Notes under the pieces: generated by a model | What the model was told of the DNA's origin: nothing | The model's input: the letters and a program-made list of their open reading frames with translations, nothing else | Databases searched by the model: none | Made by a program: the position numbers and the translations under genes | Assembly: GCA_020722805.1 (NCBI GenBank) | Contig: DYKA01000003.1 | Span: 1 to 42,578 of the forward strand | From: Vermiphilus sp. | GTDB lineage: Bacteria > Ratteibacteria > UBA8468 > B48-G9 > DTJG01 | Direction: 5' to 3' | DNA: 42,578 nucleotides | In this document: positions 22,882 through 42,578 of the stretch, in pieces | Layout of the letters: each line of letters starts with the position of its first letter | How positions within the stretch are numbered: the stretch's first letter is position 1

Positions 22882-24075
22882 ATGAAAAAGAAAATTGTGA
22901 TATGGGTTGCTGGTTTTTTTCTATTGAGTTTCCTTCTCGGGTTTAACCTTGAAGTATCTCAAGCAAGAAAAAATGAGGAAGAGTTTTATCGCGAACTTGA
23001 ACGTTTTGTAAATGTCGTAAACATAGTAAAAAAAGAATATGTGACACCTGTTAATGATAAAAAACTCATATATGGCGCACTGAAAGGCATGCTATCTTCT
23101 CTTGACCCTTACAGCGCCTTCCTTGAACCAGAAGCATCAAAGGAACTACAGATTGAAACATCTGGAGAATTTGAAGGTGTCGGAATGGAAATAACATTGA
23201 AGGACGGAATAATAACTGTTGTAAGCCCTATACAGGATACCCCTGCATGGAATGCAGGAGTTAAGCCAGGAGACAGAATAATAGAAATAGATGGAAAATC
23301 AACAAAAGGAATGAATACATGGGAAGCAGCGCAAAAACTCAGAGGCAAGAAAGGAACATCTGTAACCATCAGTGTTCTGCGGGAACACACCACAAAGATT
23401 ATCAAGATAACCCTTGTCAGAGATGTCATAAAGGTGAAATCAATTAAAAGCTCAATTCTGCCTGGAAACATCGGATACGTGAGAATAACTAATTTTCAGG
23501 AAAGAACAAGCACGGATCTTGAGGCAGTTATAAAAGAATTAATCAATCAACAGGTACAGGCATTAATTCTTGATCTCAGGAATAATCCAGGGGGACTTTT
23601 GAGCTCAGCCATAGAGGTGAGTCAAATGTTCCTGCCTGAGAAAAAGATTATCGTTTCAATTCAGGGCAGAAAACCAGAAGAAAAAAGAACTTATTATTCT
23701 CAGAAACCTCCATTATGGAACAAACCAGTTGTTCTGCTTGTCAACAACGGAAGTGCAAGCGCATCAGAAATCGTTACAGGTGCACTCAGAGACAATATCA
23801 GCACCTGCAAGGTTATCGGAACGAAGACCTTCGGTAAGGGCTCTGTCCAGAATCTGATAAAACTTGATGAAGATGGAACATCCATGAAACTGACGATTGC
23901 CTATTATTATACACCTTCCGGCACTAAGATTGATGGTAAAGGCATTGAGCCCGATATTAAAATTGAGGCACCAGAAGATATTGAAATGGGTTCTCTTGAA
24001 AAAGATGTTCAGTTAAAAAAGGCAGTAGAAGAATTATCAAGTCAGATGCAGGCAACAGTTGTAAATACTCAGTAA
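22882..24075 (+). CDS. ctpA: Carboxyl-terminal processing protease, S41 family
   Basis: LDPYS, PDZ domain (GVGMEI), DLRNNPGG, SASASEI and TFGKGSVQ. The last 4 codons and the stop come from an inserted MITE. Confidence 0.92.
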   Translation: MKKKIVIWVAGFFLLSFLLGFNLEVSQARKNEEEFYRELERFVNVVNIVKKEYVTPVNDKKLIYGALKGMLSSLDPYSAFLEPEASKELQIETSGEFEGVGMEITLKDGIITVVSPIQDTPAWNAGVKPGDRIIEIDGKSTKGMNTWEAAQKLRGKKGTSVTISVLREHTTKIIKITLVRDVIKVKSIKSSILPGNIGYVRITNFQERTSTDLEAVIKELINQQVQALILDLRNNPGGLLSSAIEVSQMFLPEKKIIVSIQGRKPEEKRTYYSQKPPLWNKPVVLLVNNGSASASEIVTGALRDNISTCKVIGTKTFGKGSVQNLIKLDEDGTSMKLTIAYYYTPSGTKIDGKGIEPDIKIEAPEDIEMGSLEKDVQLKKAVEELSSQMQATVVNTQ

Positions 24076-24157
24076 AGTACATTTTATTGCAAAGTGAAAA
24101 GTGAAAAATAATTTTAATCTTGCAGTTTACAATTTGCATTTTGCATTGAATATTTAC
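24061..24157. mobile_element. 97-bp MITE-like element with GTAA...TTAC ends and an 8-bp target duplication (IS66-family-like signature)
   Basis: TIRs GTAAATACTCAGT / ATTGAATATTTAC (11/13). CAACAGTT is duplicated at 24053-24060 and 24158-24165. The interior holds inverted heptamer repeats. Confidence 0.85.
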
Positions 24158-24167
24158 CAACAGTTAA

Positions 24168-25040
24168 ATGAAAAACTTTAACAGAAGATACGGCTCAGGT
24201 GTACTGATTCTTTTTCTGGTTTTTCTGGTACTTTTGACCTTTCTTTTTCTCGTTGAACAAATCAAGAAAAAACCATATCCAGAGAAAAAACCCACACCTC
24301 TTGAACGCAAATTTATCACTCCAGGTAAGAAAAAGATTTTGCCTGAAGTTATTCCAGAAAAAGCCGGGGCAGGGGAGATTGCAATCATACTGGATGATGT
24401 TGGATGGAATCCAGATATTGTCTCTCAGATCAAGAGAATACCTGTTCCATTAACTCTTGCAATACTACCAGACAGTCCATTTGGATTAAAAATAGCAAAG
24501 CAACTGTCAGGCAGACCGGGTGTTGAGCTTATTCTCCATATTCCCCTTGAACCAGAAAGGACAAACAGTGAGACACTGCTGTTAGATGGCTTTTTAACGG
24601 TGAAAATGGATGATGAACAGATCAGAGACAAATTCAATGATTATCTCGCAAGGTTCGGTTCTTACATCGTTGGTGTCAATAATCACATGGGTTCCAAATT
24701 TACAAAAGATCAGGAAAAAATGGCAGTGTTACTTGAAGAAATCAAAAAGAAAAAACTTGTGTACATAGACAGTTTAACAACACAAAAATCTGTTGGATAT
24801 ACTGAAGCGAAAAAAATGGGAATAAAAACAGCCAGAAGGGATGTTTTTCTTGATAACTCACCTGACCGCGAAAAAATCATTCAGGGTCTGATTATGACCG
24901 GCGAAATTGCAAGAAATAAAGGCACGGCGGTTGCCATTGGACACGCAAGGACGAATACGTTAAAAATTCTTGAGGAAAAATTACCGGAAATGCTGAAAGA
25001 AGGGTACAGGTTTGTACCTGTAACAAAACTAACCAGGTAA
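24168..25040 (+). CDS. Divergent polysaccharide deacetylase family protein (YibQ-like)
   Basis: IAIILDDVG, LHIPLEP, GVNNHMGS, DSLT, RDVFLDN and AIGH; follows ctpA as is usual. Confidence 0.9.
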   Translation: MKNFNRRYGSGVLILFLVFLVLLTFLFLVEQIKKKPYPEKKPTPLERKFITPGKKKILPEVIPEKAGAGEIAIILDDVGWNPDIVSQIKRIPVPLTLAILPDSPFGLKIAKQLSGRPGVELILHIPLEPERTNSETLLLDGFLTVKMDDEQIRDKFNDYLARFGSYIVGVNNHMGSKFTKDQEKMAVLLEEIKKKKLVYIDSLTTQKSVGYTEAKKMGIKTARRDVFLDNSPDREKIIQGLIMTGEIARNKGTAVAIGHARTNTLKILEEKLPEMLKEGYRFVPVTKLTR

Positions 25041-34945: not shown

Positions 34946-35010
34946 GTAAACACTCAATAAAGTACATTTTACACTGAATATTCAGTAAACGATGCTTACT
35001 GAATATTGGC
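34946..35010. mobile_element. Degenerate, internally rearranged copy of the 24061 MITE
   Basis: 34946-34971 matches 24061-24086 at 24/26. It contains TGAATATT twice, and the flanks CTGTAGCA/CAGGAGCA match at 6/8. Confidence 0.65.
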
Positions 35011-42361: not shown

Positions 42362-42578
42362 GTAAATCCTCACTGAACCACGTTCGCCTCCCCCTTGCGG
42401 GAGTTTGCCAAAGCATCAGTGGCGGAAGTGGGGAGGCAGGCACTCAGGATGAGTGCGGTGGGGGTGATATAGTGGGGGTGATATAATAGAATGTCACCCT
42501 CACCCGAACCCGTCTTGCACTGCGTGCTTCGGTCAGCGGCCTCACCCTCTCGGCCTTAGTGCTATACGGTGCTCTTTC
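42362..42578. mobile_element. Left end of a MITE-like element with GC-rich REP-like hairpins, truncated by the window edge
   Basis: GTAAATCCTCACTGAACCACGTT matches the inverted end at 69-91. Tandem GTGGGGGTGATATA x2 (42458-42485), GCCTCCCC/GGGGAGGC and GCACTC/GAGTGC stems, TCACCCTC repeats. Confidence 0.6.

Follow-up and report, generated by a model that had tools for sequence, protein, structure and literature searches.

A putative IS66-derived miniature transposon at the ctpA-deacetylase stop/start overlap of a Vermiphilus sp. genome

Analysis of contig DYKA01000003.1 of Vermiphilus sp. (NCBI GenBank assembly GCA_020722805.1), whose 42,578 nucleotides form the window considered here, has revealed a 97-bp element at 24061-24157 between ctpA, which encodes a PDZ-domain peptidase of family S41, and the gene for a YibQ-like divergent polysaccharide deacetylase. 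With a probability of roughly 0.9, this element is a non-autonomous transposon, a MITE (miniature inverted-repeat transposable element), which would derive from an insertion sequence (IS) of the IS66 family and would have been inserted at the stop/start overlap of the two genes. The junction shows cleanly, in nature, how a MITE comes to lie in a stop/start overlap of 4 nt. Such an event is clear but of an ordinary sort, and it provides a testable case for the fate of a coupling-reliant gene once the coupling has been removed.

The element is bracketed by an 8-nt direct repeat, CAACAGTT, which was located with a repeat finder and by reading of the sequence. The left copy of this target-site duplication lies at 24053-24060, within the ctpA reading frame, and the right copy at 24158-24165. 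Between them the element starts with GTAAATACTCAGT and finishes with ATTGAATATTTAC at 24157; the second CAACAGTT follows, and then AAATGA, which contains the deacetylase ATG at 24168. The left terminal inverted repeat (TIR), GTAAATACTCAGTAAA, extends over 24061-24076, and the right terminus, TGAATATTTAC, over 24147-24157. The repeat finder pairs 24061-24071 with 24147-24157 as an inverted repeat of 11 nt and 91% complementarity, and it detects imperfect inner arms of 25 nt and 76% complementarity. In the interior, three direct heptamers at 24088-24108 (TGCAAAG, TGAAAAG, and TGAAAAA) stand opposite four inverted heptamers at 24118-24145 (TCTTGCA, GTTTACA, ATTTGCA, and TTTTGCA). All these features are given on the forward strand. 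A preliminary description of the locus had already reported a 97-bp element with a perfect 8-bp duplication and three heptamers facing four inverted ones, and both observations hold. The number of heptamers differs among copies of the family, and the left-arm TGCAAAG/TGAAAAG units, about 2 to 5 per copy, behave like a small variable tandem repeat within the transposon.

With 97 bp, the element is too short to code for a transposase, and the copies of its family range from 40 to 190 bp. It had also been proposed to form an imperfect hairpin. The RNA of the element region does fold, at -22.0 kcal/mol versus -16.7 +/- 2.9 for shuffled sequences (z -1.8), a stability equalled or exceeded in 9 of 200 shuffles. 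The hairpin is real but weak and not distinctive, and a stable hairpin as a distinguishing feature of the element is unsupported. A role as terminator was rejected on the finding of no terminator-like site within 23800-24400, and Rfam returned no match at E <= 1 across 23900-24300.

The consequences of the insertion for the two genes can be read from their open reading frames (ORFs). On the forward strand, ctpA occupies 22882-24075 and the deacetylase gene 24168-25040, the latter with an intact product of 290 aa and a full-length domain (ORF table and Pfam); gatB lies upstream of ctpA, and tsaD begins 1 nt past the deacetylase stop. The present CtpA has 397 aa and, as stated previously, the tail ATVVNTQ*, and the deacetylase start lies 92 nt beyond the ctpA stop. 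The left terminus contributes the residues VNTQ plus an in-frame TAA at 24073-24075, and the second CAACAGTT regenerates the bases immediately before the deacetylase ATG. When positions 24061-24165 were excised by script, CtpA became 394 aa long with the tail ATVK*, the two genes met in an ATGA junction, and the downstream ORF remained unchanged at 290 aa. The empty allele would accordingly be expected to read ...GCAACAGTT joined straight to AAATGA. This is the reconstruction proposed in the preliminary description, and it agrees with the arrangement found throughout the genus. The ORF list shows the same 4-nt overlap at seven other co-directional junctions of the window.

None of the motifs GGAG, GAGG, and AGGA occurs within 18 nt upstream of the deacetylase ATG, either in the present or in the reconstructed allele, in line with the earlier remark that the downstream gene has no obvious Shine-Dalgarno sequence. 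These motifs precede 395 of 998 long ORFs genome-wide versus 130 of 998 at a control offset, and Shine-Dalgarno pairing is therefore used in this genome, though not for every gene.

Evidence for the empty site comes from the orthologous junctions. The deacetylase protein was matched in all 41 genomes searched, that of the window included, and the junction survey returned the loci of 29 relatives, with ctpA directly upstream in 28 and one locus ended by a contig end. In the genomes of the same genus, the ATGA stop/start overlap is present in 11 of 11, the CtpA tail ends in K in 10 of 11, and the element itself is found in none. Among the 17 relatives at greater distance, ctpA and the deacetylase gene are spaced by between -26 and +18 nt, with no spacer close to 92 nt in any of them. 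The overlap was also recovered in six of six metagenome contigs obtained by a scan with the deacetylase protein (52-66% identity). The comparison of the junction in related genomes, which had been suggested as a check of the insertion, thus shows the overlap in all congeners examined and in all these contigs.

The element belongs to a dispersed family. Its own genome (G000; 1.79 Mb in 182 contigs, 92% complete, with contigs designated below by C and a number) yielded 64 matches in a genome search and 94 high-scoring segment pairs with blastn-short. Most copies match as two halves with extra interior sequence between them, and many are located at contig ends. Right-arm cores number 47 (22 long, 12 short, 12 other, and 1 cut) and are spread over many contigs. 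Beyond the conserved right core, most copies carry CAGTAAACGGTGTTTAC TGAATATTTAC before the flanks diverge. In long-form copies the right end reads in full ...ACTGAATATTTAC, and the complete inverted repeat, GTAAATAYTCAGTAAA, has a length of about 16 nt. When 16 two-ended copies were aligned, the copy at the ctpA junction proved to lack a central block of about 50 nt that most copies have. It also lacks the 25-nt subterminal unit of the long forms, CAGTAAACGGTGTTTACTGAATATT, which leaves it with an inverted repeat of 11 rather than 16 nt, and it is the sole copy of G000 with this length and structure. The designation as a complete MITE consequently needs qualification: both termini and the duplication are present, but the interior is that of a shortened derivative of a full form of about 140-190 bp.

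The flanks of these copies provide the signature of transposition. Ends were called by motif and alignment, blind to the flanks, and both ends, together with 8 nt or more of flanking sequence, were available for 22 copies. The flanking 8-mers matched at 8/8 in eight copies, 7/8 in four, 5/8 in one, 3/8 in four, 2/8 in two, and 1/8 in three, so that further copies with 8-bp duplications, which the preliminary description had anticipated, do exist. When left flanks were compared with the right flanks of other copies, 0% matched at 8/8 and 0.3% at 7/8; this cross-pair control used an earlier automatic end-calling in which some right ends were wrong, while the copy counts use the alignment-based rule. 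With flanks shifted by 8 nt, none of 21 matched at 8/8 and one at 7/8. The 8-mer that is duplicated varies among the copies (CAACAGTT, TTCTTAAC, AATCGTTC, CATGGAAT, GATTTATA, AAAATATT, AAAATGTT, and GAAGGGTC), and such copy-specific duplications are the hallmark of transposition through a cut staggered by 8 bp. The copy at C144:41270 scores 3/8 owing to a 1-nt terminal deletion that sets the comparison off by one; by eye, AGGATTGG stands on both sides. Short-ended copies with perfect duplications of their own occur elsewhere, for instance at C89:11802 and C144:19602. The absence of the overlap allele from relatives and of duplication-bearing copies elsewhere would have spoken against an insertion; the overlap allele and such copies are, however, both present.

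The possibility that the repeat is not mobile DNA at all, and instead a structured intergenic repeat of the repetitive extragenic palindromic (REP-like) or terminator-hairpin type flanked by a chance 8-nt repeat, draws on the imperfect hairpin and on the copies without clear duplications, and is next to negligible: it is contradicted by the eight perfect and four 7/8 duplications, each of its own sequence and none at 8/8 in the controls, by flanks that diverge exactly after ...TTTAC in G000 and in the copies of a distant genome (G041, described below) alike, and by the fold, which does not surpass shuffles at customary thresholds and is accompanied by neither a terminator-like site nor an Rfam family.

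An IS66 parentage of the ends, hinted at in the preliminary description by the suggestion to compare them with IS66/ISBst12-group TIRs, is supported by the published signature of the family and by a resident relative. Genes for IS66-family transposases (PF03050) were found in G000 on contigs C23 and C19. The C23 element is intact: next to an ORF for TnpB_IS66 it has a TnpC frame of 534 aa that carries the LZ, zf-IS66, DDE, and C-terminal domains, and its ends read GTAAGCGCTCAG...; the C19 copy is broken and has the right end GTAAATCCTCAGTAAACCAC. The left end of the MITE is identical at 17 of 20 positions with the C19 end and at 14 of 20 with the C23 end. Both ends of the MITE read GTAAATA and contain CTCAG. 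Passages of PMC11946415 give inverted repeats starting with GTAAGCG and 8-bp direct repeats as the IS66 signature, of which the MITE shares the GTAA and not the following GCG. Its ends also resemble those of ISDge4 of the ISBst12 group, described in part of PMC12898284 with the TIRs GTGACTACTCAGCA / GTAACTGCTCAGCA and an 8-bp direct repeat.

On this basis, an IS66-family transposase acting in trans would have cut the DNA with an 8-bp stagger immediately upstream of AAATGA, and the element would have been pasted in there. Termination-reinitiation coupling at the ATGA, on which the deacetylase gene may formerly have depended, would thereby have been lost. The preliminary description spoke of broken translational coupling; the gene layout bears this out, a 92-nt gap having replaced the overlap, while an effect on expression is only inferred. 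It is plausible that transcription reads through to the deacetylase gene and tsaD, since no terminator-like site lies in the surrounding region, and tsaD would then not be cut off. The deacetylase would probably be translated less efficiently, either from an AU-rich leader or from a transcript begun at a promoter-like site in the right arm of the element. The gene tsaD is widely regarded as essential in bacteria. The rebuilding of the start context by the duplication, together with the closing of ctpA after four extra codons by the GTAA...TAA terminus, may explain why an insertion upstream of tsaD was tolerated. The copy appears to be young, because its duplication is perfect and its arms are 96-100% identical to other copies, and the intact deacetylase ORF would fit a recent or tolerated insertion.

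Several observations weigh against this interpretation. No empty allele of the same species was found, the nearest relative having only 67% YibQ identity and none of the metagenome contigs being close enough to represent the same species, and in the contigs of runs X1-X3 across 23300-24900 no joint bypasses the element. An intact IS whose ends are exactly those of the MITE (GTAAATMCTCAGTAAAC) is not among the assembled sequences of G000, the C19 copy with the best end match being broken and cut by the contig start. PF03050 was detected in neither of two other genomes that carry the repeat, G041 and G030, both of them metagenome-assembled genomes (MAGs), so that absence is not established. Ten of the 22 two-ended copies lack a convincing duplication (5/8 or less). 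The promoter-like site is not above chance, and the effects on coupling, transcription, and translation are all deduced from the sequence. Lastly, among the X1 contigs listed, ends fall at or near 24107/24108, the internal deletion junction, so that for the precise 97-bp interior the MAG assembly is the only source.

Beyond the transposon origin, and as a supplement to it, the repeat may act as a domesticated regulatory cassette, with an outward promoter in the right arm and heptamers serving as protein-binding sites, which would drive or regulate the deacetylase-tsaD unit. The promoter-like sequence TTTACA-17 nt-AATATT at 24126-24154, identified by consensus match only, lies on the forward strand, faces the downstream gene, and is retained in 33 of the 47 right cores of the family. 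The right end could be called in 34 cases: in 21 of them it looks towards a gene of the same direction, in 8 towards the 3' end of an opposite gene, and in 5 no gene was called. For this split our own arithmetic gives a two-sided binomial p of about 0.02 against 50:50. Start codons lie no more than about 40 nt from many of the copies, and a distant genome carries the right core without a difference across 25 nt. As a null, 50:50 is too strict, however, since the intergenic regions between divergent genes are longer and have a gene start at either end. Conservation of the arms is equally expected from transposase binding, and the single promoter-like site found is fewer than the mean of 1.7 given by shuffled sequences. 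The orientation bias is suggestive, if weak, and could reflect either a regulatory role or orientation-dependent tolerance. A cassette function is, on balance, rather unlikely. More doubtful is the broader proposal that the whole family constitutes a mobile promoter/operator cassette, composed of TTTACA-17-AATATT and variable heptamer arrays as binding sites, which would have spread horizontally between very distant uncultivated lineages and rewired many operon-internal genes in G000, the deacetylase-tsaD pair among them.

The likeness to IS66 ends could also be superficial, and the element mobilized by another transposase family that likewise makes 8-bp duplications. The missing IS with identical ends would fit this proposal, as would the heptamer arrays, which have no counterpart in the subterminal sequence of C19 or C23, and the lack of a visible IS66 transposase in the two MAGs G041 and G030. 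It is nevertheless improbable in view of the 17 of 20 terminal bases held in common with the C19 end and of the GTAA start and CTCAG motif, which also occur in the IS66/ISBst12 ends given in the cited portions of PMC11946415 and PMC12898284. Furthermore, IS66 is present in G000, being the sole transposase family searched for.

A different question concerns the interior of the element. The insertion may be real and its 97 bp the product of an assembly that took a short route through a high-copy repeat, in which case the copy at this site would in truth measure about 140-170 bp, like a longer family member. X1 is the sole run holding the locus, and its contigs break inside the repeat, so that they neither support nor oppose an empty allele. 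Independent X1 contigs span 23300-24089 and 24130-24900 with zero differences, which confirms both junctions between flank and element. They stop, however, at 24089 and 24130, on either side of the 24107/24108 position at which other listed contigs end or begin. In addition, the 97-bp structure is found in no other copy of G000, and both missing segments are bordered by short repeats (AAA and TGAATATT). On the other side, the copy has a private base 10 nt away from the junction, a C at 24118 in place of the T of other copies, and reads specific to this copy must therefore exist. A bridging piece may be among the 107 further contig pieces beyond those listed, and the short-ended copies with perfect duplications at C89:11802 and C144:19602 show that such ends occur elsewhere. 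An artefact of this kind is quite improbable, still more so than mobilization by a different transposase. One contig in the X1 comparison rejoins 24154 to 24059 (it 'goes back 96'), which places a right end before a left end. This joint probably comes from another locus with abutting copies; it could alternatively represent a circle-like junction.

In 64 other genomes searched as members of the same phylum, the element was matched only in G030 (2 matches, 91% over 45 nt) and G057 (1 match, 80%). The exact 25-nt right core was found in 94 stretches of named genomes, and the 80 listed are all in MAG JAHJHM01 (G041, Candidatus Omnitrophota bacterium). This genome lies outside the 65-genome phylum set of G000, to which it compares with identities of 32% for YibQ and 55% for GatB. 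Its copies have termini and heptamer arms as in G000, with differing subterminal and central parts, and of its 11 two-ended copies two are flanked by 8/8 and two by 7/8 matches. This distribution suggests that the family has spread horizontally between distant lineages.

Other repeats with related ends occur in the window. A 65-bp mini-copy of the MITE family at 34946-35010 on the forward strand comprises the left end, a remnant of the right core, a hairpin unit, and a degenerate right end, with flanks matching at 6/8. It lies just upstream of CAGGAG and a GTG/ATG start of a small ORF whose beginning resembles a lipoprotein signal peptide. At 1-91 on the reverse strand, a second MITE family is represented by one end, which has GGCACAAAG-type repeats and the terminus GTAAATCCTTACTGGA and is cut by the contig start. 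This family consists of arrays of 8-nt GGCACAAAG-type units with 42 genome matches and the termini GTAAATCCTTACTGGA or GTAAATACTCAGTGAAG, often at contig ends. A third repeat type begins with GTAAATCCTCACTGAACCACG, an IS66-like end, at 42362 and runs on the forward strand to the contig end at 42578; it is also distributed genome-wide and often at contig ends. At least three IS66-ended repeat families thus lie at many contig ends, both ends of the window's own contig included, and these repeats are probably a main reason why the assembly of this MAG is fragmented.

Copies of the first family also occur within copies of the second, at the same internal site (...AAAAACTA|GTAAATAC...), on contigs C64, C74, C96, and C110. 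The arrangement could be due either to nested insertions or to a composite unit that has itself been copied. At C56:19182-19516, a 335-bp copy of the first family holds a GC-rich repeat with IS66-like ends (GTAAGCCCTCAGTGAACACCG...), which represents another nested event.

Among known systems, the Correia elements of Neisseria are high-copy MITEs that adjoin genes and have documented effects on the transcription of the neighbouring operon. They provide a model for a regulatory role of the element at the ctpA junction, although their termini and target differ and the effects there are experimental. A literature search returned no description of MITEs in Omnitrophota in the portions of the sources it covered, and the match combining the two terms concerns a chlamydial symbiont of hydra. 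A MITE linked to an IS66 parent is likewise absent from the passages of PMC3189936 and, by term count, from PMC10969869.

The MITE named Chunjie, from Geobacter uraniireducens Rf4 (Chen et al. 2008, as treated in parts of PMC10969869 and PMC3184786), resembles the present family in having dozens of copies of variable size, one of them inside an operon, and in being AT-rich with TIRs and direct repeats. In contrast, Chunjie has 21-bp TIRs, 9-bp direct repeats, and a fold that is described as very stable, whereas the present family has TIRs of 11-16 bp, an 8-bp duplication, and a weak fold, and the sequences are unrelated. Another comparable system is MITEPsy1 of Pseudomonas syringae pv. phaseolicola. 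According to passages of PMC3189936, this MITE measures about 100 nt and its ends match a resident IS; by inserting close to the 3' end of a gene, it gave rise to a new allele in which the C-terminus is altered. It differs in its 4-nt duplication at CTAG/YTAA and its IS5-like parent, and its transposition was shown experimentally, while the element described here is known from sequence alone. The IS66 family itself, including the single-ORF ISBst12 group, shares with the present element the GTAA termini with CTCAG, the 8-bp duplication, and the resident end matching at 17 of 20 positions. Unlike these ISs of about 2.5 kb, the MITE is without a transposase, measures 97 bp in a family of about 140-190 bp, has an interior built of 7-nt arrays with no counterpart in the ends of the resident ISs, and reads GTAAATA in place of the canonical GTAAGCG. 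Overall, a MITE insertion of an IS66-like family at the stop/start overlap is well supported.

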